Shown piece by piece: positions 20,863 to 33,736 of a DNA stretch of 64,000 bases; within the stretch, counting starts at the first letter, position 1, and every line of letters begins with the position of its first letter. A program made the translations under genes and the position numbers. Where the stretch lies: IMG/VR virus record IMGVR_UViG_3300044956_000431, positions 32,001 through 96,000 of that record; one strand, 5' to 3'. This DNA is from a virus. The notes beneath the pieces are model-generated. The model worked only from the letters and a program-made list of their open reading frames with translations, ran no database searches and was not told the DNA's origin.

Positions 20863-21870
20863 TTATTGGCTTTGTCCACAAACGTCATTGCAAATAACCA
20901 AGCGGCCCTGCTCAAAGGTAGATATTTTCCAGGATTTTTCCACGGTTACGAACCAGTCTATGCAGGATTCCAAATCATTTTCTAGAGCATTGTTGTTTTT
21001 TAATATAGATTTAACTTGTTTATTGGCTGCTTGATGGTAGTTGCCGTGCCCATAAGTGCTGGGATTGAATCCTAAAAAACAACAAGGGTAAACATCGCCA
21101 GTACTGCTGACATAAACTGATTTGTTTTTTTGTATTTGACAAGCGATGGGCTTAGGGGCCCGACTGGGAGTTATATCTTCCAATAGCACTTCGTCAGTTT
21201 TTCTGCTGTCAAACAATATTTTAAACTCTGTTTGTTTAGGAGTACCAATCACATGAGTTAGTTCACCGCGAGAGTTGTAAACAGGTGTCTGATCTCTACC
21301 GTGATTTACCAACCGAAACTCTTGAAATCCTAGCTCTTGTGCCAACTCACGGGCCTGGCCCCATTGGTGCTGATTATGTTCAAACTCAATCATTTTCCAC
21401 ACAGCATGACCTCCTGCCAAAATAAAAGTTTCAGCATTTTTCATCACAGTGGAATACAAGGTGTTTTGTCTATAGAGACTGTGCGTGTCCTCAAGCCCAT
21501 CAATACAGAAAATCACTATAACATTTAACTTGGCCAATGCTTGCCAAAATTTACGATCGCGAGCGCCACCATTGGTGCTGACTGATATTTTTATGTTGGA
21601 ATTTTGTGTTCGGAAATAAGTTAAAATATCAACTGTGTCAAGATTCATCACAGCATCGCCAAAGTTACCATTGACGTAGAGTTGGTCAAGTTGTGCTATG
21701 AAATCAGGGTGAAATATCTTTTGTGCTTCCTCCAAGGTCATGTCATGTTCAACATAACCATCATTATAGGGATATCCGTAAAAGTTCCTGGGGCACAGTG
21801 GGCAGGCGGCATTGCACCTACTGGATATTTCTAAATGAACGTGACGTATCTGATTGAAGCTGTATATCAT
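20863..21870 (-). CDS. radical SAM protein with C-terminal SPASM/twitch-like domain
   Basis: CNAACPLC, GNFGD, STNG, GDVYPCC, C..VC. Confidence 0.9.
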   Translation of the reverse strand: MIYSFNQIRHVHLEISSRCNAACPLCPRNFYGYPYNDGYVEHDMTLEEAQKIFHPDFIAQLDQLYVNGNFGDAVMNLDTVDILTYFRTQNSNIKISVSTNGGARDRKFWQALAKLNVIVIFCIDGLEDTHSLYRQNTLYSTVMKNAETFILAGGHAVWKMIEFEHNQHQWGQARELAQELGFQEFRLVNHGRDQTPVYNSRGELTHVIGTPKQTEFKILFDSRKTDEVLLEDITPSRAPKPIACQIQKNKSVYVSSTGDVYPCCFLGFNPSTYGHGNYHQAANKQVKSILKNNNALENDLESCIDWFVTVEKSWKISTFEQGRLVICNDVCGQSQ

Positions 21871-23273
21871 CCGTTGGCTTTGATATTGCTTAACATCTTT
21901 TTCAACGCAGAGCTTTGTACATCTGCGGATACCTTTAATACTTCGCCGGTTTCTTCATCTAGAGATTCACTGCCACTGACTTGACTCTTAGCTTTGATAG
22001 ATTCATAAATGCTGGGTTTCTTTACAAAGCCTGAACTTTGTTGCTGATCTTCCCCTAGGTCTCTGATGCGCAGACTTTCAATGTCAAACTCTAAGTCTAC
22101 CTTTTGTCCAACACCGCTGGAACTACGAGTTTTCATCAGCTGAATCTGATAACGTCCACGCTCACGCATAGCGCGGCTAGTAAAAATACCAAATACGTTA
22201 TCCGCAGTATTAATCTTTGAAATACCACCTGAAATATGTGAGTGATCAAATTCAATCTCCTCTACAGCCGCACGGTTCAACTGCGATGCTGTGACAAATA
22301 GCACATTGAGTTCTTTGGCCAAGTTACGCAGTTCTTCACTCACGTACTTGTCTTTGACAAACAAGTCATTGGGAGATACTTTTGCGCTGACAGGCATGAT
22401 CAAGTCCAAGTAGTCAACACACAAAAAGTCCACACGCTTGCCAGTTTTAACTTGTAGTTCTTTAAGATAAGCACGAATGTCGTTGACTGTGCTTTGTGCT
22501 GGCATGTATTTGATTTGCAGTGCGCCCGACTTCTTCTGCATCATTTTGACTTTCATTTCAACTGTGTCAATATCTCGGAAAATCTCTTTGGCAGACGTAT
22601 TGGTCATCATAGAATCAATACGCATTGAACACAAACCTTCTGAAAGTTCTAGTGTGATATAACAACCATTGAGTCCGGCCTGTGCCCAGTTTACAGCCAA
22701 GTTCTGCATGAACAAACTCTTGCCTGACCCTGAACCACCAGCAAAGATCTGTAGTTCGCCACGATTGAATCCGCCATATAGTAGTTGGTCCAACGCAGGC
22801 CAACCTGTGGAGTTTTGTCCGTTGTTGTTTTTAAGTGCCATGAGTCGAGCACGTGGATCGTCGAAGTAATCTGTGCCTAAGTCTTTGGTCAATGATATCT
22901 GCACAGCATCTTTGATCAACTTCTCTACAGGATCAAAGTTTCCTTTTTCCAACAAGTCTGCTGATTTAAGAATAGCACGTTCTAGTTCTTGGCGTCTAGT
23001 AAAGCCTTCAAACTCTTCCATGAACCAGTCAAGATGGCCATCATTGAGTTCAGGTATTTCTTCCAAGCTCACACTGGTCACTGCTCGCACTTGTTTGCGG
23101 TCAGGCAATGTTTTGTGTTTGTCTGCATGTTCTTTGATAAACTTTGCGGCACTGCGTAAGCTACGATCAAAGTTTTCGTCGTTGTAGATATTTTGCACTC
23201 GCACAAAACTCTGCGCATCTTGCATCATGATCTCAAGAAACAATCGCTGTACTTCTACTGGGTAATCTTTCAT
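21867..23273 (-). CDS. DnaB-family replicative helicase (gp41-like)
   Basis: GGSGSGKS, LELSE, VDYLDL, TASQLNR, MKTR. Confidence 0.95.
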   Translation of the reverse strand: MKDYPVEVQRLFLEIMMQDAQSFVRVQNIYNDENFDRSLRSAAKFIKEHADKHKTLPDRKQVRAVTSVSLEEIPELNDGHLDWFMEEFEGFTRRQELERAILKSADLLEKGNFDPVEKLIKDAVQISLTKDLGTDYFDDPRARLMALKNNNGQNSTGWPALDQLLYGGFNRGELQIFAGGSGSGKSLFMQNLAVNWAQAGLNGCYITLELSEGLCSMRIDSMMTNTSAKEIFRDIDTVEMKVKMMQKKSGALQIKYMPAQSTVNDIRAYLKELQVKTGKRVDFLCVDYLDLIMPVSAKVSPNDLFVKDKYVSEELRNLAKELNVLFVTASQLNRAAVEEIEFDHSHISGGISKINTADNVFGIFTSRAMRERGRYQIQLMKTRSSSGVGQKVDLEFDIESLRIRDLGEDQQQSSGFVKKPSIYESIKAKSQVSGSESLDEETGEVLKVSADVQSSALKKMLSNIKANG

Positions 23274-23286
23274 GGTGTCTTTCGTA

Positions 23287-23976
23287 TTACGTATCTATGC
23301 GTTCTAATATGAGTTTGACAAGTTTTGCATGAGTATCTGGGCCTGGATGTGCATCCATTGGTGCTTTATCCGTTTGCATGTTGGCAACACTTTGCCAAGG
23401 ATTGGCCCATGATTTCCAATCAACTAGTTCAAAGTTATTGACCAGTTGTTGCGCAAAGTTTGCTCGTTGTTCTTTTTTTAGATCGCACAAAAGATTTTCA
23501 AACTCAGTACTCATTGGTAGACTACTGTCAGCCATGTCCGGAGTCATATCAATCCTTCCATTGATAAAAACTACCTTTTTGTTTTTACACTTGGCTATGT
23601 CTTGTATTATACGACAAAAATCTATAAGTTGCATTATATTTCCGTAGTCATGATTTCTTTTCTGAAACTCTGCTACAAATCTCGTGTCATCCCCACTTTC
23701 TAGTGGTGTGCCAATAAATAATCCCGAATCAGGTGTAGGATAAAGCCAATGGCGATGTATTGCCGTCCACTGTACTACAAAAATTTCACATTGATTATCA
23801 ATAAGGGCTTTGCAAGTCCGTAAAAATATTTTAAGATTGCTAGAGCCGCCTTCGGCATCGTTAATCACATCCATCTTTAATGCTTGGGCCAAAAGATTTG
23901 GATAGATCCTAGCATCGACTTGCTCTTGTTCAAATCCTGCACCTGTAGATATGCTACAGCCTCCTATATAAATCAT
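23287..23976 (-). CDS. SGNH/GDSL-like protein
   Basis: GGCSISTG, GGSSN, DAHPG. Confidence 0.65.
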   Translation of the reverse strand: MIYIGGCSISTGAGFEQEQVDARIYPNLLAQALKMDVINDAEGGSSNLKIFLRTCKALIDNQCEIFVVQWTAIHRHWLYPTPDSGLFIGTPLESGDDTRFVAEFQKRNHDYGNIMQLIDFCRIIQDIAKCKNKKVVFINGRIDMTPDMADSSLPMSTEFENLLCDLKKEQRANFAQQLVNNFELVDWKSWANPWQSVANMQTDKAPMDAHPGPDTHAKLVKLILERIDT

Positions 23977-24518
23977 ACCATACGCTCCTTGATATATTGA
24001 TAAATTTTACTGTTGCCCTGTGTATCAAGATGATTGATGTTGCCTGGATTAGTTTGTCTTAGTGTGAAAAATGAATGTATGTGAGTATTACTAAGATCAA
24101 ATCCTGTGCAATGTATTGCACTCTGGCACTGCTGGAATAATCTATCTAACAAAAGATCAAAAAGATCATCTTGAAACTGCTGATCATAAAAGTTTTTGTA
24201 ATATCCTTTGACGATATCTGCCCACCCTACTTTGTCTAAACTGTCATTGGCCAGCATATCGCAGTAGGGATGTGTTTGTAAGGTGCGACTAGGGTGAGTT
24301 ACATGATCCGGCACAAATACTCGGTCAGGGTTGGTATGAAATACTATGATATGATTGTAGTTTGTTAGATCCCGTTGCTGTATGCTTTTATAAATGCGGT
24401 ATTCGCTAACTCCGCGCTGTGCAAAGTTATCAACTTTGAACTCTCTAGCTAACTGCGACGCCCAGGAATCTGCTCTGTCAATGGTAGCAAAACTATCTCC
24501 AAATATTGCTACTCTCAT
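23973..24518 (-). CDS. SGNH/GDSL-like protein
   Basis: IFGDSF, NFAQRGVS, NHL..GN; start MRVAIF with ATGA overlap. Confidence 0.7.
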   Translation of the reverse strand: MRVAIFGDSFATIDRADSWASQLAREFKVDNFAQRGVSEYRIYKSIQQRDLTNYNHIIVFHTNPDRVFVPDHVTHPSRTLQTHPYCDMLANDSLDKVGWADIVKGYYKNFYDQQFQDDLFDLLLDRLFQQCQSAIHCTGFDLSNTHIHSFFTLRQTNPGNINHLDTQGNSKIYQYIKERMV

Positions 24519-25222
24519 ACCCATCCCAACTGTTGTAGCTTGGGTTCTAACACTTGTTCCCACCAACGCTGATTACCATCGGATCCATAATGACCGTGCC
24601 AGCCAAACTTGTCAAAGTCTACAGGACAATAGACATCTTTGTTGACACTGTAATAGGTGTCATCAAATATGATGCTGTGTGGATCAGCTGAAAATCTTCG
24701 TTGGATACTGCCTAATACTGGCCAATCAGTCTTGGGTTGAAACGGTTCTGCTAGATTTACAAACAAGTACTGATCAGTCCATCCTTTGATGTATCTACTT
24801 AACAAAAAAAGTTCTCGCAAAGTTTGTGCTTCTTGCCAACTTCGATTCCAAGCCGTCACATATCCACGACCCAGTTGATGTGTAGTTACCTGACGTAGAC
24901 CATCATGCTCCGGCAGTTCTGGCTGATCAATGGGTTGAAGATTTCCAAACATTTTGTGATATCGGGGCGGCCGTGATTCAGTATCGTACACTGTAAAACG
25001 TTCAATGGGTGGCACACCAACTACAACATAGTCATCTTGAGCAAATCCTGCACCAGCAACAATGAGATGAGATATGCTGTCTATATTGTTGCCTGGCCAG
25101 CTGTAGTTTTCTACTGTGTCAACTTGTAGTGCCCAAGCCATCAAACCCCACCAAGAGTCCTGTGGTTCTACACAAAATCTTGGTGTGCTGTAGCTATCTC
25201 CGTAGATAATCAGTCTAGACAT
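24515..25222 (-). CDS. SGNH/GDSL-like protein
   Basis: IYGDSYS, NYSWPGNN, GH...GN. Confidence 0.7.
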   Translation of the reverse strand: MSRLIIYGDSYSTPRFCVEPQDSWWGLMAWALQVDTVENYSWPGNNIDSISHLIVAGAGFAQDDYVVVGVPPIERFTVYDTESRPPRYHKMFGNLQPIDQPELPEHDGLRQVTTHQLGRGYVTAWNRSWQEAQTLRELFLLSRYIKGWTDQYLFVNLAEPFQPKTDWPVLGSIQRRFSADPHSIIFDDTYYSVNKDVYCPVDFDKFGWHGHYGSDGNQRWWEQVLEPKLQQLGWV

Positions 25223-26174
25223 TGAGTTTCCTTGCTAGATTTTTTTTGGACATTTCTATACGTATGCGATTACTATTTCTAGCTTCAAAAATACTCAGCA
25301 GTGTGGCTGCACGTCCATATTTTCTCACAGCATCATTGACGTCTTTGATATCTAAGCCCCAGTTGGGTATACTTACTGCCCAGCCCAGTTCCAGGGCACG
25401 ATCTATCAACCGAATGCCTGCTTCATCTTGATCAGGCACAACTGTTATTTTTTTGCCCAGGCTACAGATCAGACGTACTTGGGCATCGTTGATTTCTGCG
25501 TGTAACACTGCTAGACCGCTGACGCTGAGTGCATCAAACACTCCTTCCATGATCAGAACATGTTGCCATGAATCTTTCTGCAAGTCTGTGCCAAATACAT
25601 AGCCATGCTGGATATCTTGTATGTACTTGGGTGTGCGATCATCTAAAAATCTTGTGGTGTGTCCTACCACTTGGCCATCGTGTGTGAATGGAATCACTAT
25701 GCCCGGGCGTGGCATGGTCTTATACAAGAAAGGATAGTCCAACGGTACTGAACGGTTGTTGAGATATGATTGCGCGACATCTGTAAGTGGTTGAGTATCC
25801 GTGGGCAACAGTCGATCTTCAAACTCAATGTTTTGTAGTTTTTGAACTATCTGTTGACGCTCGGCTACCAGGCCTTCTATGTTACGATGTCGAAGGCTTT
25901 CTAAGTTGATGCGTTCAATCTCATTACGATCTATATTGAGCCACCCCAACAGCTTGCGAGCTTTGAAACTGAGATTCCTACCTAGCACAAAGCTGGCAGT
26001 GAATCCGCAGTTGAAGCAATGATAACTCCATCCTTGAGCAGTGACCTTAATACCACCTCGCTGACGTCGGTCAGCTGACTCTCCATTGTGTACACAGCAA
26101 GGTGCATTGAAGCTTGTCCAGCCTGAACTGGTGTTTTTGCGCTTTATGGGTAGGTAGGAAAGGACATCGATCAC
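25215..26174 (-). CDS. DNA primase (gp61/DnaG-like)
   Basis: Zn finger PCC..YHCFNC; TOPRIM EGVFDA, PDQDEAG, KDVND. Confidence 0.92.
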   Translation of the reverse strand: MIDVLSYLPIKRKNTSSGWTSFNAPCCVHNGESADRRQRGGIKVTAQGWSYHCFNCGFTASFVLGRNLSFKARKLLGWLNIDRNEIERINLESLRHRNIEGLVAERQQIVQKLQNIEFEDRLLPTDTQPLTDVAQSYLNNRSVPLDYPFLYKTMPRPGIVIPFTHDGQVVGHTTRFLDDRTPKYIQDIQHGYVFGTDLQKDSWQHVLIMEGVFDALSVSGLAVLHAEINDAQVRLICSLGKKITVVPDQDEAGIRLIDRALELGWAVSIPNWGLDIKDVNDAVRKYGRAATLLSIFEARNSNRIRIEMSKKNLARKLNV

Positions 26175-26911
26175 TCTAATATTTTAGCATGTTTTATGTG
26201 TTCAATCAAGTGATCTGCTATGATCTGATGGCCTTTTTCATTGGGATGACCGCCAGATGCAAAAGGCTCTATGCCCAGTTCTTGTTTTTTTTGGTACAGG
26301 ATTTCTCGCCAGCTTAGACCTGGATAGATAAGGCTGGGTGCCGTAACTCCATAACGGTTAGGCAACACTGAAAACTGTATGACCGGAATCTTGTAACGAC
26401 TAGTGGCCTGATCAAACAAGTTGATTGATGTCTGAAAGTTGTACTCGGCCCAATCTGCGTGAAAACTCATACCTAACCAAAGTTTCTGTAGACGGAACCA
26501 GTTTTCGTCAATGTCAGGATTGGGCTGAGTGAGCCATGTGCCATGCATGTGTCGATTCCATTGTGGATCCTTGCGACTTATTTCGTGCAAAGGATTGAAC
26601 CAACTCTGGCGAGTGGCGTCTGTGTGTCCTACCAAAAACAATACATCATCAATGCTTTGTCCGTTGCGCAAATACCACATAAAGTTCCAGCGCATGCTTT
26701 CCAAGCTAGAACCAGGAAAGGCCATGTTGTCCAGTTCGAGACCAAACTTATCGGCTACTAGACCTGCGTAACCGTGTTTCAATCTGTAACTACGATTTTC
26801 ATCGTAGTGATCTCTAAACTCAGACGCCGATAACCCTCTAAACTCAGGCGTCACAAGTTCATCGCCATAGGTCCAGCTATCGCCAAATACTACCAGTTTG
26901 CGTATCTTCAT
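26171..26911 (-). CDS. SGNH/GDSL-like protein
   Basis: VFGDSWTYG, NMAFPGSS, GHPNEKGH. Confidence 0.75.
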   Translation of the reverse strand: MKIRKLVVFGDSWTYGDELVTPEFRGLSASEFRDHYDENRSYRLKHGYAGLVADKFGLELDNMAFPGSSLESMRWNFMWYLRNGQSIDDVLFLVGHTDATRQSWFNPLHEISRKDPQWNRHMHGTWLTQPNPDIDENWFRLQKLWLGMSFHADWAEYNFQTSINLFDQATSRYKIPVIQFSVLPNRYGVTAPSLIYPGLSWREILYQKKQELGIEPFASGGHPNEKGHQIIADHLIEHIKHAKILE

Positions 26912-27926: not shown

Positions 27927-28304
27927 ATGGGCACAGAGATCTTCGCCAAAATAGCAGAACGCTATCCTTTCATTACATTCTGCACCTATGCAGGCAATGA
28001 GTACATCGGAGTAGTACAAAACCGCGACGATGCAGTGACCACTATCTATGATTTTGGAAATATTCCACACCCAGAGCTAAAAAAAGTGTTCTTAGAACTG
28101 GCCAATGTATGGTGGTGGGAAAGCAATCGTAGCATACCTATCAACATATTTCTCAAGCAAGATTGGGAAGTGTTCCGTCCGTTCCTGCGAACGTTTACCA
28201 ACAAAGATCTTGAAATATTGCACGGGCCTTGTACCAGCCTAACAGACATTGCCCGTAAAAAATCCAAACGTAAATCAATCACCCTGGTCCGCAGAATGGA
28301 CTAG
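27927..28304 (+). CDS. conserved hypothetical protein
   Basis: 125 aa, WWWESNR motif; TATAAATA at 27878-27885. Confidence 0.8.
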   Translation: MGTEIFAKIAERYPFITFCTYAGNEYIGVVQNRDDAVTTIYDFGNIPHPELKKVFLELANVWWWESNRSIPINIFLKQDWEVFRPFLRTFTNKDLEILHGPCTSLTDIARKKSKRKSITLVRRMD

Positions 28305-28856
28305 ATTCATGTGCAAGGCTACTAGCTGTGCGTAGCCTACAGCATGGCTTTTCTTGAAAAAATAACTGTCGTCCTGCGGGCGAGTCCAGATATCTTTGGC
28401 TATTGCAGACCACCCGCCCTGTGCTAGATGGCGTTTGGCCGGGCGGATCACTGCCAACAACATGGCCATTCTGGGTATGTTATCAGGCTGTAGTTGATGT
28501 ACTAGATCATAGTGGTTACCAATGTGCGCAATCTTTTCACAGAAATCACGCTCCTGCAAACGACACCACGGCGGTTCTTGTGCCAACATTGAATCATAGT
28601 GTGCTTGATCACGCACAAGCTGATATACTGTCATGTTCAACAGGTCTATCTTAAAATAGCCACGCTGTTTGGCTTCTTGGTAGTCTATGGCCGCACACTG
28701 ATTAACAGGATCTCTAGGTATGTCTGTGATATAAACACCAGAGTTATGCCGGCGCACACAACCGTCTACAATCTGTCGAGCAGACACATGCTGTATCAAC
28801 TTCAGCACTTGCTCTCTATCTGCTAGATCAATGTCTACATCTGCACTCATTACCAA
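28275..28856 (-). CDS. miniature DnaE (Pol III alpha)-like protein
   Basis: ADVDID, RHNSGV, GYFKIDLL, AVIRPA, FKKSHAVGY in DnaE order. Confidence 0.8.
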   Translation of the reverse strand: MVMSADVDIDLADREQVLKLIQHVSARQIVDGCVRRHNSGVYITDIPRDPVNQCAAIDYQEAKQRGYFKIDLLNMTVYQLVRDQAHYDSMLAQEPPWCRLQERDFCEKIAHIGNHYDLVHQLQPDNIPRMAMLLAVIRPAKRHLAQGGWSAIAKDIWTRPQDDSYFFKKSHAVGYAQLVALHMNLVHSADQGD

Positions 28857-29533
28857 CCTGCCCGGGCCAATATGTCTTTGACGTATTCTTGATCTGCTAG
28901 ATAGTCTCGAAACTTTTTCTGCCAGAACTCAGGATCAATCCAGGGCCAGATTATGGCCAGTTGTTCCCGGTCTAGATCGTCAAGGAACTGCTGACCAGAC
29001 GCACAGTTATACAACACCCAAGCACTGACACGCCCTGTGCTCACAGCATAGACCACTGCATTGGCATTGCCGTACCGTAAGAAATCGCTGGCTGGATGCT
29101 GGTGTGTTTCACTCCAGACAATCGAATGTTCAATGGCCCGTGCAAGTGCATCTGTAACACTTTCCTTGCGCATGTACTCATTGAGGTATTCTGTGTATAC
29201 ACTGTCTCTGCACCAATGATCAATCTTTTTGTTTTTTTCAACTACCCAATCAATAAACCGGGATGTGTTCACTGCATTGATAGCTACACAATACCTTCCA
29301 AACTTTACAAAGGCACGATAGTAAGGACTGGTCACAAAATCATCAAAAGTTTTGAGCTTGGCTGATCCTTGAGTCATTTCGTAAAATCGGAGATATGCCT
29401 GTAGACCCAACCTCACTCCTGGATCATCTTTGCTTTGGTAACGTTGTTTTTGCTCGCAGACATGTACAGAAAGACTGGTCTCTCTTTGAAAGTCTTTTTT
29501 GCAATATTGGCATGTATACTTTACTGCTTGCAC
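28850..29533 (-). CDS. protein with N-terminal zinc finger
   Basis: CQYCKKDF...SVHVC. Confidence 0.7.
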   Translation of the reverse strand: MQAVKYTCQYCKKDFQRETSLSVHVCEQKQRYQSKDDPGVRLGLQAYLRFYEMTQGSAKLKTFDDFVTSPYYRAFVKFGRYCVAINAVNTSRFIDWVVEKNKKIDHWCRDSVYTEYLNEYMRKESVTDALARAIEHSIVWSETHQHPASDFLRYGNANAVVYAVSTGRVSAWVLYNCASGQQFLDDLDREQLAIIWPWIDPEFWQKKFRDYLADQEYVKDILARAGW

Positions 29534-29546
29534 GATTTATTGTAGC

Positions 29547-30707
29547 TTACTTGAACCAGTTTTGTACAGAGCCTTGCCGAGAAATATCATTGGTCACGCA
29601 ATGAATACCACAGTCCCAAAAATACTTGTGACGGAATGGCACTACATGAACTTCGATTCCATGTCGAGCACAGGCTTTCTCCACTTGATCGTTGTGGGTT
29701 GACACAACAATATTTTTTGGATCCATTATCAGTATGTTGACATCAAACACTGTTTCCGACACCTGGCCTACCCACTCATCAAAATAATGATCTACCATGT
29801 GTATGAGATTGTTGTCTTGTTCAAATCCAGGTATAAACCAACGACCTTTGTTGCGTTTCATTGAAAACTCAAACTCTCGCATGTGAGCATAGTTTGACGG
29901 TGGCAAATATACCACCTCCCAATCTGGGAATGTGTCAGTATAAGTGGGTATATCATTAAGGCTAATGATAAGTCCTGGAGCAACAGGGCAGTACACAGCA
30001 TCACCATGGCCGCCAGAGTTCACTACTTTGTTCACTGTGCGAGGGAACAGTTGATTAACTTGTTTCAGTATAGCCTGTTTATCATCGTGATATGTTTGTG
30101 TGGCAAAAAACAAGTTCTCACCAATGCGACTAACAAAGCAACCGTTGACAAAGTCTAGGTCGGTATATACAATCTCGTTACCTTGAGCACGTATTTCATC
30201 AAACACGTGATTGTAAAAACTCAACTTGCTGTCCAAATGACGTTGATCTGTTTCGCAAAACTTTGCAAACTTTTCACGAATCTCTTGAGCATGGTTAGGC
30301 CAGGCTTGGTAAAAATCATCTGGGCGTTCATAGTCTGGACAATGTACAGGTTTGTTTTGTCTGTAAAAAACTGACCAAGCATGACTGGCATTGGGTACAC
30401 GTGGTACCCAAAAACGATCTTCAATCATCAAGAAGTAGTCGCGTGGTGCAGTAGGAGGCTGGACCCACTTGCCATCAATATATAACTCATTTAGATCGCT
30501 AGGAAACTCAGGACGATGTATGCGTACACTAAAGTGTTGGGTCAATAGCTTGATCAGTTCTTGATAATCTTCCTCTGTTTCTTCTGCCAGCCGTTCAAAT
30601 CGACTGCGTGTCTCTGCGTCATTGATCCAGCTGTAGAACTCAGGAGGATAGGTAAGTCCCACTAAGCAAACCTTTAACGGATCCCAATGTTGGTATACTG
30701 AGTACAT
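29547..30707 (-). CDS. amidinotransferase family protein
   Basis: WDPLK, PRD, GHGD..PGLII, FDVNIL, GIHCVT.DI.R. Confidence 0.85.
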   Translation of the reverse strand: MYSVYQHWDPLKVCLVGLTYPPEFYSWINDAETRSRFERLAEETEEDYQELIKLLTQHFSVRIHRPEFPSDLNELYIDGKWVQPPTAPRDYFLMIEDRFWVPRVPNASHAWSVFYRQNKPVHCPDYERPDDFYQAWPNHAQEIREKFAKFCETDQRHLDSKLSFYNHVFDEIRAQGNEIVYTDLDFVNGCFVSRIGENLFFATQTYHDDKQAILKQVNQLFPRTVNKVVNSGGHGDAVYCPVAPGLIISLNDIPTYTDTFPDWEVVYLPPSNYAHMREFEFSMKRNKGRWFIPGFEQDNNLIHMVDHYFDEWVGQVSETVFDVNILIMDPKNIVVSTHNDQVEKACARHGIEVHVVPFRHKYFWDCGIHCVTNDISRQGSVQNWFK

Positions 30708-31153
30708 TATTCTTTGTGTCCTTGATTTTTCAATATTTCTTTAAGTTCAGTCTTGGTCATCATGGCTGCCATGGTGTCAATGTCACTCATCTTCATGGCT
30801 GGATATAAGTCTACAAGAGATTTCTTTATTTCATTGTTTGCTGTTTCTTTTTTCTTGGGAGCAATCCATTGATGCCTATGTGTGCCTATGCCAGGACTCA
30901 CACTTGTGGCCATGAGCCACTGTAGCTTTGGATGTCGGTTTACTGCAAAGAAATGTTTGTTGAGTCGTTCGTTTGTGGCAATAACATAGAACTCTTGTAG
31001 TTCTTTCGATCCTTGCACACTGGATCCCCAACGTATCATAAGATAGTTAGAGAACTTCTTGCGTTCTTCCTCGGTGAGACTATCGTAGAACTCTCGATCT
31101 TTACGATCAAAGCACGTCATCTCGTTTTGTATTGAGAGTTTTTCCATTACCAA
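30707..31153 (-). CDS. possible clamp-loader small subunit (gp62-like)
   Basis: KKFSNYLMIRW...HQWIAPKKK pattern, size and context. Confidence 0.45.
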   Translation of the reverse strand: MVMEKLSIQNEMTCFDRKDREFYDSLTEEERKKFSNYLMIRWGSSVQGSKELQEFYVIATNERLNKHFFAVNRHPKLQWLMATSVSPGIGTHRHQWIAPKKKETANNEIKKSLVDLYPAMKMSDIDTMAAMMTKTELKEILKNQGHKE

Positions 31154-31656
31154 GCCTTGTTGTAATCTACTATCTCACAGTTACGACTGATGTCTTTGAC
31201 AAAATAAACACAATCGGGTTCTGGATCATTGTTCAGCGGTATGCACAGCATCTGTCCATTTTTTAGCTTAGGTGCAAACCACGCAACATCATGATACACG
31301 TCTACAATCTCAATGTCAAGAAAGCTGGGTCTAAAGCTGGTCAGAGGATTGAACTGAAATGCTTTGAACCCACGGTCATTGATTGATGTCAGTGGTAGCA
31401 TTTCTAAATCGCCAAGGTCGGGCTCTCCAATCAGGATTTGCCAGTCAATGGGCATCTTTAAACGATGCTCGCCAATCTGTAAAACCAACGCAGGTGAGTT
31501 AAAACTCTCTAAAAAGATTAATGGTATGTAGTGGTAGTCTGGGTCAGATGGGTCTGAGTTATCTAAAATAGCAAACCGCATGTCATCTACTTCTTCGGGT
31601 AGCGTATCTAGATCATAGGCTTTGTTGTCTAGTGTCAATATTTTCATGTTATCCAT
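31147..31656 (-). CDS. conserved hypothetical protein
   Basis: PLIFLESF, beta-rich. Confidence 0.75.
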   Translation of the reverse strand: MDNMKILTLDNKAYDLDTLPEEVDDMRFAILDNSDPSDPDYHYIPLIFLESFNSPALVLQIGEHRLKMPIDWQILIGEPDLGDLEMLPLTSINDRGFKAFQFNPLTSFRPSFLDIEIVDVYHDVAWFAPKLKNGQMLCIPLNNDPEPDCVYFVKDISRNCEIVDYNKAW

Positions 31657-32285
31657 TATACAATATTATTACGTATTCCGCGACCAAGGATCACTCCGTA
31701 ATCGCCGGATTTTATAATTTGATAACCATTGATTATCAAATACGGTACCACAGCACCGCCCTTGCCTGTATAAACTGCATTGTGCTCATAGGTGTCGTCC
31801 ACACAGATAATACTCTTTGTTGCCATGCTAGGTAACAGGCCCATTATCTGACTGAGATGATTAACTTGGCAGTTGATATTGGTCATATCTATACCCATTT
31901 TGCAATACCAGGCCTGCTGTTGTCTCATATTATCGCTGGGCTTGTGTGATTCCCAATCCCAATCAAAGTTATCCAGATACAACACTTTGATAAGTTGGTG
32001 GCGTTGGTCAAACCGCTGACACCATTCAGTGGCATTGGCGCAGGTAAACTCTACTCTTTGCAAGTGGTCTGTATTTACAGTCTTGATCACACGATGGTAA
32101 GCTTCTGGATCTATGTCCACGGTGATCAATCTAGAGTTGTGTGTATTGGCCAGGTCAGCAAAATATGCTGTGCTACCTTCCCAACGGTCACTGCCTAGTT
32201 CTACAATGACTTCATTACAATCAAACTCACCTAGTAAATATTGCCCAACTTCTCGAAACAGTGTGCCCATTATGTGGTCATCCAC
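31656..32285 (-). CDS. class I SAM-dependent methyltransferase-like protein
   Basis: IVELGS, TVDID, LYLDN, ICVDDT, GKG. Confidence 0.7.
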   Translation of the reverse strand: MDDHIMGTLFREVGQYLLGEFDCNEVIVELGSDRWEGSTAYFADLANTHNSRLITVDIDPEAYHRVIKTVNTDHLQRVEFTCANATEWCQRFDQRHQLIKVLYLDNFDWDWESHKPSDNMRQQQAWYCKMGIDMTNINCQVNHLSQIMGLLPSMATKSIICVDDTYEHNAVYTGKGGAVVPYLIINGYQIIKSGDYGVILGRGIRNNIV

Positions 32286-33736
32286 TCAAGTTTTTCGTGC
32301 GTGAAAGGATAACGAGCTTCTTTGTAATAGGCTTTACGTTTGGTTAAATGTCTTTTCGCAAACTTGCAGGTGGATGTAATGTCCCAGATTTGTACATGGT
32401 CTTTATCCTTTGCTTTTCTAATACCGCGCCCAATGCTCTGTATAACTCGTACAAAGCTCTTTCCGGGTTCCACAAGCACCAGATTGAAAATCCTAGGAAT
32501 GTTAATACCAACAGCGGCCACACCGTAAGTAGCAACAATAATTTTATCAATAGCTTGAGCCACTTCATCGTATTCATCTTGTCTATCCTTTGCCTTGGTT
32601 GCACCTGATACAAATACAGCACGTTCGCCCAGCCGTTTGACCAACTCTTGTCCAGCCGTAATACGGTCAACTAGCACAAGAGTGTTTCCTGTTTCATTAA
32701 CTTGACGTATAAGGTCTGCCATGGTATCAAGTCTACCAGATTCTTCTAACAGATACTTTAGTTCACTTTGATAGTTGGTATATTCAACATGATCAACCAG
32801 CTGTACAATGTTTACATGGCACTGAGCCAACACACCCTTATCTTGTAGTTCTGCGGCTGCCAATCTGCTGACAACAGGCCCAAGACTCACATGAATAGCC
32901 TGAAACTCAAAGTCCTCTTTGGGTACTGTTCCTGTGAGGCCCCAGCGAATTGGCACTCGCGACATTACGCCAGTGAGTAGAGTTTTCAGTGCGTCGGCTT
33001 TGGCCATGTGTACTTCGTCTACCATAACGCATACAACATCTTCCAAGAACTCACCAATGGTACAATCTGTAGTTCCTGACTTGGTATTCTTTAACAGTAC
33101 GTTAAGACTTTGCCAAGTACAGATGGTATGTGTTTTACTCCATTCTTTTCTGTCGCCAAAGTACACCCCAACGTCTAGCCTTAGATTGCGATAGTCTTTT
33201 TCTGTTTGTGTAACAAGACTTTTATTGGGCACAATCACCAGGCTACGGCCATAGGGTTCCACAGCATGACTTAGTGTAGCTGTCATTAGAGTCTTGCCAG
33301 CGCCCGTGGCAATCTCTTGAATACACTGTGGGTTACTTAGAAAGTTGTTGACTATTTCAACTTGATAGTCTCGCAACATAATGGGTTCACCGGTCTGTGG
33401 ATGCCCTGTGGGCCAGGTCTTGTTGGCAAAAGTATTTTCTGTGATTGTTGGAAACTCAAAGGTAATAGAATACTCTCTCTGATCATCTAGTTCAATGTCA
33501 TAGTTGTATTCTTCTAATATGGGTATAATTTCAGGTAATAGGTTTACATAACTACTGCCGCCCAGTTGGAAAAAGGATACCTTACCGTCCCATCGTCCCA
33601 ATCTCACTGCTGGTAGATACCTTGCATAAGGAACATCATATTTGAACCGCTTGACCAGAGTTCGTCGAACGTCTAGCTCTAGTCCTTCTATTTTGACGTT
33701 TACTTCGTCTTGTATGATTAGTCGTGCAGTTCTCAT
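32270..33736 (-). CDS. uvsW: UvsW-like SF2 helicase
   Basis: WDGK, LRDYQ, ATGAGKT, DEVH, LTGT, QSIGRGIR. Confidence 0.92.
   Translation of the reverse strand: MRTARLIIQDEVNVKIEGLELDVRRTLVKRFKYDVPYARYLPAVRLGRWDGKVSFFQLGGSSYVNLLPEIIPILEEYNYDIELDDQREYSITFEFPTITENTFANKTWPTGHPQTGEPIMLRDYQVEIVNNFLSNPQCIQEIATGAGKTLMTATLSHAVEPYGRSLVIVPNKSLVTQTEKDYRNLRLDVGVYFGDRKEWSKTHTICTWQSLNVLLKNTKSGTTDCTIGEFLEDVVCVMVDEVHMAKADALKTLLTGVMSRVPIRWGLTGTVPKEDFEFQAIHVSLGPVVSRLAAAELQDKGVLAQCHVNIVQLVDHVEYTNYQSELKYLLEESGRLDTMADLIRQVNETGNTLVLVDRITAGQELVKRLGERAVFVSGATKAKDRQDEYDEVAQAIDKIIVATYGVAAVGINIPRIFNLVLVEPGKSFVRVIQSIGRGIRKAKDKDHVQIWDITSTCKFAKRHLTKRKAYYKEARYPFTHEKLEWMTT

Follow-up and report, generated by a model that had tools for sequence, protein, structure and literature searches.

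Can a protein of about 190 residues that carries the motifs of DnaE, the catalytic subunit of bacterial DNA polymerase III, be a polymerase by itself, or is it part of one? The question is raised by a small gene in a 64,000-nucleotide stretch of DNA (hereafter, the window), which corresponds to bases 32001-96000 of the 109,984-bp IMG/VR virus record IMGVR_UViG_3300044956_000431. The source phage is uncultivated, and the record is estimated to be ~32% complete. A preliminary description of the window, made from the sequence alone, had noted the gene as a miniature DnaE-like protein, had proposed that it encodes a stripped but potentially active palm enzyme whose neighbors supply the missing domains, and had supposed that it might already have been noticed in surveys of jumbo phages. 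This last supposition was correct. The protein is the C-terminal unit (C unit) of the split minimal DNA polymerase III alpha subunit (Pol III alpha) that was described in group 2.2 jumbo phages by Iyer, Anantharaman, Krishnan, Burroughs and Aravind (2021, Viruses 13:63; PMC7824862).

The family, its split architecture and its distribution among phages have therefore been known since 2021, and annotation pipelines already label the protein; hence, the novelty of the identification itself is low. The present analysis places the C unit on the DnaE structure with confidence and shows that the N-terminal unit (N unit) ends exactly where the C unit starts. It also adds natural fused forms that would offer convenient single-chain constructs for biochemistry, a tightly linked zinc-finger protein of no recognizable fold as a candidate partner, and the finding that certain lineages possess a complete DnaE-like polymerase as their third.

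The open reading frame (ORF) 28275..28856 on the minus strand has 193 codons when counted from a TTG start, and the five motifs reported for it (DVDID, RHNSGV, GYFKIDLL, IRPA and FKKSHAVGY) are all present in the order in which they occur in DnaE. An ATG at 28850 gives a product of 191 amino acids that begins with MSADVDIDL. This ATG shares one base with the TAA stop codon of the upstream 227-codon ORF (TAATG), as expected from the reported overlap with a zinc-finger gene, and judging from the sequence it is a likelier start than the TTG. The overlap suggests that the mini-polymerase gene is translationally coupled to the zinc-finger gene. Residue numbers below refer to the 191-residue protein. 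Megablast of the 12-kb region against isolated phages gave no match.

Relationship of the C unit to the DnaE catalytic core

A plain phmmer search of the C unit against the PDB and a Pfam scan both gave no match, and the Pfam family PF07733 does not detect the protein because the sequence similarity is too low. Among the PHROGs, the C unit matched phrog_11778, annotated as 'DNA polymerase', with an E value of 2.8e-57 (residues 5-187 against positions 7-192 of a 197-position profile), and there was a faint second match, located at the FKKSH helix, to the full-length DnaE-type phrog_405. A profile built from 25 homologues had a sole match in the PDB, the E. coli Pol III alpha, with an overall E value of 3.2 that is weak on its own; the match consists of four collinear stretches at D401/D403, D555, FRPG 638-641 and FNKSH 756-760. 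BLASTP of the C unit against a 567-residue DnaE-like protein encoded by the same genome gave an E value of 1e-4, and the C-unit profile scored 20 bits.

The AlphaFold2 (AF2) model of the C unit, computed with a multiple sequence alignment of 97 diverse homologues, has a mean predicted local distance difference test score (pLDDT) of 96.5 and a predicted template modeling score of 0.89. The top 18 Foldseek matches to the model are all C-family polymerases. VIA-align aligned 189 of the 191 residues with Taq Pol III alpha 460-841 at a Z score of 10.0 and a root-mean-square deviation of 3.6 A, and gave Z scores of 9.3 against E. coli 399-784 and 9.8 against PolC 970-1299; the bacterial comparison structures (Pol III alpha/DnaE of E. 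coli, 2HNH, Taq, 3E0D, and M. tuberculosis, 5LEW; G. kaustophilus PolC, 3F2B) align at Z 9.3-10.0 over 186-190 residues. All 16 matches with Z >6 are Pol III alpha, DnaE1 or PolC, and the first unrelated fold has a Z score of 3.5. The relationship of the C unit to DnaE is visible only to profile and structure methods. The agreement of the profile, the BLASTP match, phrog_11778 and the full-length alignment of the AF2 model indicates that the five motifs did not arise by chance.

According to the model, the C unit shares with Pol III alpha and PolC the Pol-beta-like palm strands bearing three Asp residues, the K-x-D strand, the RP(G) turn and the (N/K)KSH finger helix. It differs in having 191 residues as compared with ~385 (E. 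coli 399-784), with the thumb and most of the finger elaborations deleted, and in lacking the PHP domain, the N-terminal half of the palm, the beta-clamp-binding domain, the OB fold and the tau-binding domain. The C unit is thus a DnaE palm/finger core of about half the usual length. That the PHP, OB and clamp-binding regions are absent had been stated in the preliminary description, and indeed the protein maps solely to the E. coli 399-784 core; a PHP domain was matched nowhere in the 110-kb record. The nucleotide-binding GS loop (RGSGAGS-type) that resides in the N-terminal half of the palm is likewise absent from the chain, which begins three residues before the first Asp.

Conservation of the active site

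Residue conservation was counted in 97 C-unit sequences, down to 26% identity. D4, D6, K67, D69 and P137 are invariant, D8 and R136 are found in 96 sequences and H169 in 95, whereas position 167 is K or R, and position 168 S or A, in 94 each. In the profile alignment, D4, D6 and D69 correspond to E. coli D401, D403 and D555, FKKSH at 165-169 aligns with FNKSH at 756-760, and S168-H169 therefore takes the place of S759-H760. In the E. coli enzyme, D401, D403 and D555 form the active site and H760 is a steric gate against ribonucleotides (PMC8485763). The key residues of the C unit are accordingly the putative catalytic residues D4, D6 and D69, together with K67, R136-P137 and K166-K167-S168-H169.

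The three catalytic Asp residues are thus conserved in all 97 homologues, and the pattern of conserved residues argues against a decayed relic. One suggestion in the preliminary description was that the protein might be a DNA-modifying nucleotidyltransferase. Because the steric-gate His is retained in nearly all sequences, the conservation pattern instead favors the working site of a DNA polymerase that selects deoxynucleoside triphosphates (dNTPs).

The N unit is encoded by a separate gene in relatives

Relatives of the C unit at 34-44% identity among isolated phages come precisely from the group described in 2021, namely Rak2-like coliphages (such as 121Q and PBECO4), PA5oct, Atu_ph07, Phosso, SCTP-2, XaC1 and RsoM2USA, several of whose records already annotate the protein as 'DnaE-like DNA polymerase III alpha'. 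The protein studied here resembles the published C units (121Q gp16, PA5oct gp264, Atu_ph07 gp74 and Phosso XYS97594) in family, in length and in its start at the DxDxD strand. We collected 5710 homologues of ~190 amino acids, which form 482 clusters at 50% identity.

A search of the Atu_ph07, 121Q, PA5oct and Phosso genomes with PF07733 detected in each a short ORF of ~170-180 codons that covers only positions ~16-98 of the family and lies tens of kb from the C unit. Three large IMG/VR relatives contain the same short ORF, again restricted to positions ~16-98 and far from the C unit. This is the N unit (phrog_11127, the C unit being phrog_11778), and it was present in every complete or large relative tested (121Q, PA5oct, Atu_ph07, Phosso, G001-G003 and G006-G008). 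The rest of a split dnaE is, therefore, encoded tens of kb away from the C unit in every complete relative checked, an outcome that the preliminary description had itself listed as refuting its reading. Of the proposal that the gene encodes a stripped, potentially active palm enzyme, the part that stands is the DnaE palm/finger core with its conserved Asp residues; the part that does not is self-sufficiency, given that the N-terminal GRGS subdomain is a separate protein of ~175 residues.

The boundaries of the two units are complementary. The N units of 121Q, PA5oct, Phosso, Atu_ph07 and the three IMG/VR relatives end in ...GVGRGSSVASYVL...EFL(K/R/N/E), with one extra residue (W) in 121Q; the ending shared by these N units can be written W-G-V-G-R-G-S-S-V-A-S-Y-V-L...D..E-F-L-(K/R/N/E). 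Among the N-unit homologues listed, all 120 have both GxGRGS and the terminal EFLR. The N unit stops directly before the point at which DnaE continues with P-D-x-D-x-D-F, and it is at this point that the C units start (M..ADIDID).

The two units also co-occur. The N-unit family is of a size similar to that of the C-unit family, as 7,995 out of 8,000 candidates that were scored gave a match. In the isolate phage database the C unit occurs in 96 records and the N unit and the zinc-finger gene in 93 each, and the tallies by genus are near-identical. The longest contigs for one C-unit representative (P0011) and one N-unit representative (P0296) both measure 332,132 bp, which is only suggestive. 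The split enzyme is very common in environmental jumbo phages, where its C units make up at least 5,700 protein clusters and its N units ~8,000. No smaller relative of the bacterial replicase is known, and the split form has been put forward as a model of the ancestral C-family polymerase.

Natural fusions of the two units

An exhaustive search of the representatives identified one protein of 375 residues, P0156, which the C-unit profile matches over residues 190-373. The first half of the chain consists of an N unit, and a linker of ~10 residues (...KEFIK-DNKEGIYNI-ADFDID...) connects it to the C unit. In this protein phrog_11127 matches at 8-180, phrog_11778 at 190-374, and the full-length DnaE phrog_405 spans the junction at 101-207. 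Two further fused proteins of 376 residues, P0271 and P0272, were found in other datasets; like P0156 they are metagenomic and match the N unit, the C unit and, over the junction, phrog_405. Such fusions independently support the idea that the N and C units form one enzyme. In a tree of C units (FastTree, midpoint root), P0156, P0271 and P0272 nest inside a clade of split forms that has a support of 0.98, which suggests that the fusion is secondary to the split state. We found no mention of such fusions in the main text of the 2021 paper (PMC7824862).

A two-polypeptide polymerase or a stand-alone enzyme

Homology, fold, residue conservation, complementary boundaries, co-occurrence and natural fusions together make it highly probable that the C unit supplies half of a minimal C-family DNA polymerase that is made of two polypeptides and is typical of the group 2.2 (Rak2/PA5oct/Atu_ph07-like) jumbo phages. 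From these we infer the physical assembly, the polymerase activity and the biological role of the pair as follows. The N and C units would assemble non-covalently into a single Pol-beta-like palm. To this palm the N unit would contribute the GS triphosphate-binding loop (a G-R-G-S helix-loop), and the C unit the beta-strands with the three metal-binding Asp residues (D4, D6 and D69) and K67, as well as a pared-down finger helix bundle with the R136-P137 turn and the K-S-H steric-gate helix. The assembled pair would polymerize dNTPs on a primed template as an auxiliary beside the family B replicase of the phage. Given the fixed place of the gene close to those for primase and helicase, primer extension or repair synthesis is our leading guess as to its role. 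The enzyme has no thumb, clamp-binding or proofreading domain and would, therefore, likely be distributive unless tethered by partners. The authors of the 2021 study suggested that the split enzyme cooperates with the family B replicase, either in the synthesis of one strand or in repair (PMC7824862).

Several points weigh against this interpretation. No N unit was detected in the phage's own 110-kb record with either PF07733 or an N-unit profile, so that the pairing in this particular phage is inferred from its relatives and from the incompleteness of the record. We expect the N unit to be encoded in the unsampled two thirds of the genome. Furthermore, the literature open to search yielded neither biochemical nor genetic data for any member of the family; the record encodes a complete DnaE-like protein of 567 residues (see below), which complicates the assignment of roles; and the confidence with which the C unit is predicted to fold alone leaves room for an independent activity.

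One could, therefore, envision that the C unit is a stand-alone, stripped palm enzyme, perhaps aided by the zinc-finger protein, and that it transfers nucleotides, for example by extending primers in partnership with the primase or as a transferase that modifies DNA. The three catalytic Asp residues, K67 and the KSH motif all reside within the C unit, which would fold by itself, its gene appears to be translationally coupled to the conserved zinc-finger gene, and the available record contains no N unit. We think that this is unlikely. In solved structures of C-family polymerases, the GS loop, which the C unit lacks, helps hold the triphosphate; an N unit that bears this loop co-occurs with the C unit and is fused to it in three natural proteins; and the conserved steric-gate His points to ordinary use of dNTPs.

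A second DnaE-like polymerase in the same lineage

The two-polypeptide model must also take into account the 567-residue protein, which is encoded at G000:C1:24158-25861(-), in the same record but outside the window and ~34 kb from the C unit. It is a single-chain, PHP-less DnaE-like protein that matches PF07733 at positions 19-260 (E value 3e-39) and the finger domain PF17657 (7e-16), and that has RGSAGS, DIDLD, KID and RP motifs of its own. Like the C unit, the PHP-less compact DnaE-like polymerases of this type (phrog_405/phrog_11165) are phage-encoded and carry the same catalytic motifs; unlike the C unit, they have a complete palm and finger in one chain and are found in many phages without the split form. 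Close homologues of the 567-residue protein (73-86% identity) are common in IMG/VR.

Two relatives encode a 567-like protein together with both units of the split enzyme: G007, which is 337 kb long, has terminal repeats and is 100% complete, and G006, with 320 kb and a completeness of 93%. The complete relatives G001, G006 and G007 encode a family B polymerase, which is not found in the 110-kb fragment. Judging by their gene content, G006 and G007 thus carry three polymerases, one of family B, the split mini Pol III and the 567-like DnaE. The 2021 study states that other Pol III domains are absent from phages that have the split version (PMC7824862), a statement to which the 567-residue protein of this lineage is an exception.

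Could the C unit in this lineage, then, be a partner of the 567-residue polymerase, rather than of an N unit, or a redundant remnant beside it? PF07733 matches nothing else in the record, and the N-terminal region of the 567-residue protein aligns weakly with N units. Such a partnership nevertheless seems very improbable. The 567-residue protein, having its own DIDLD, KID, RP and finger motifs, needs no complement; G006 and G007 encode it alongside both units of the split enzyme; and the 484-kb uncultured phage LR756508 has a 575-residue homologue and no C unit. The strict conservation of the catalytic residues in the C unit also speaks against a remnant. Least likely of all, and hardly credible, is that the C unit is a catalytically silent structural or regulatory replisome component of polymerase descent, as the lack of any demonstrated activity and of the thumb, clamp-binding and OB parts might suggest, since metal ligands, K67, R136/P137 and H169 that are invariant or nearly so down to 26% identity are the signature of a working active site.

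G007 and the phage studied here share 57% identity in the C unit and ~80% identity in the 567-residue polymerase. On the evidence of the C unit, the relationship between the two phages is not very close. The difference in divergence could be due to exchange of the 567-codon gene or to constraints that differ between the two genes.

The conserved gene block around the C unit

Gene order was surveyed in 80 IMG/VR loci and proved strongly conserved. The order is AAA+ ATPase, UvsW, p169, p148, zinc-finger p227, variable inserts, C unit, p125, structural-like p331, in some cases SGNH, and primase, and the same pattern is annotated in 121Q, Atu_ph07, PA5oct and Phosso. As the preliminary description had stated, the C unit lies between the gene for a UvsW-like helicase and those for the primase and a DnaB-like helicase (Table 1); these three genes, all within the window, match the setting of the group 2.2 jumbo phages. 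The locus follows the published split system in the succession UvsW ... zinc-finger gene, C unit, convergent small gene, structural gene, primase and helicase. It differs in the direct coupling of the zinc-finger gene to the C unit (one to three small genes lie between them in 121Q, Atu_ph07 and Phosso) and in the insertion of an amidinotransferase gene into the block.

Table 1. Features of the window in and around the block that contains the C unit.
Feature	Coordinates	Strand	Evidence
UvsW-like superfamily 2 (SF2) helicase, upstream boundary of the block	32270..33736	-	Pfam ResIII, DEAD, Helicase_C, weak UvsW_N; phrog_16
Conserved 169-residue protein (p169)	31147..31656	-	phrog_11279, E 5e-50; 59/80 loci
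Conserved 146-148-residue protein (p148)	30707..31147	-	phrog_11758, E 5e-20, annotated unknown function; 72/80 loci
Amidinotransferase-family protein, 386 residues	29547..30707	-	phmmer against PDB: HsvA 5wpi, E 1.6e-9, plus AGAT, SxtG, StrB1
Zinc-finger protein, 227 residues	28850..29533	-	phrog_11058, E 1e-55; 74/80 IMG/VR loci
C-terminal unit of split minimal Pol III alpha, 191 residues	28275..28850	-	phrog_11778; AF2; VIA; conservation
Conserved convergent 125-residue protein (p125)	27927..28304	+	phrog_11637, E 1e-32; 77/80 loci
DnaG-type Toprim primase, downstream boundary of the block	25215..26174	-	Pfam Toprim_2; phrog_47, E 3e-35
DnaB-like replicative helicase	21867..23273	-	Pfam DnaB_C, E 8e-21

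The zinc-finger protein has an N-terminal CCHC finger (C8, C11, H24 and C26; C-x2-C-x12-H-x-C) that is invariant in 71 sequences, and its AF2 model shows an all-helical body (pLDDT 94.1). The model gave no fold match, with a best Foldseek E value of 0.79 and a best VIA-wide Z score of 4.6, which is at noise level for helical proteins, and a look-up in the ESM Atlas returned no usable match. The protein may, according to the model, represent a new all-helical fold bearing a CCHC finger. The resemblance of its 'GRVSAWVLY...LDDLD' to 'GRGSGAGSLVAY...ITDLDP' had raised the idea that it is the missing N-terminal half of the palm. This candidate was rejected: BLASTP against the 567-residue protein gave an E value of 0.48 in the wrong region, a hidden Markov model (HMM) of the N unit gave an E value of 2, and neither Foldseek nor VIA-wide found a C-family match for the AF2 model. 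The earlier proposal that the neighbors supply the missing domains thus finds no visible support, in that no detectable relation to DnaE domains was found, for the zinc-finger protein by BLASTP, the N-unit HMM, Foldseek and VIA-wide.

The p125 gene is convergent with the C-unit gene, and their 3' ends overlap by 30 nt. Of the longer loci listed, most show such an overlap, of ~10-30 nt, and the arrangement is annotated in 121Q (gp17), PA5oct (gp263), Atu_ph07 (gp73) and Phosso. On the other side of the block, the p148 gene is probably the one that had been called 'gp62-like'. This label was not upheld. The phrog_11758 of p148 and the phrog_11279 of p169 are not the phrog_225 of T4 gp62; PF16790 (Phage_clamp_A) had no match at E<=10 in this record, G001, G007, 121Q or PA5oct; and hhalign of the family alignments against T4 gp62 gave a probability of at most 2.4%. 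The p169 protein had no match of note among PDB sequences.

A bolder and, in our opinion, doubtful proposal is that the p169, p148, zinc-finger, C-unit and p125 genes together encode a multi-piece minimal C-family polymerase, in place of the published two-piece one, in which the zinc-finger protein would replace the thumb or duplex-binding domains, and that the lineage separately runs three polymerases, namely the family B enzyme, the split mini Pol III and the 567-residue PHP-less DnaE.

The amidinotransferase-family protein has a C-terminal GIHC motif. Its gene is present in just 4 of the 80 loci and occupies a different position in one of them (L088); it is a variable insert and lies outside the conserved module. 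Several SGNH/GDSL-like genes are interspersed among the primase and helicase genes at 23287-26911 of the window, with a weak Pfam Lipase_GDSL match at 26171-26911, and the DnaB-like helicase gene is followed by a radical SAM/SPASM gene at 20863-21870.

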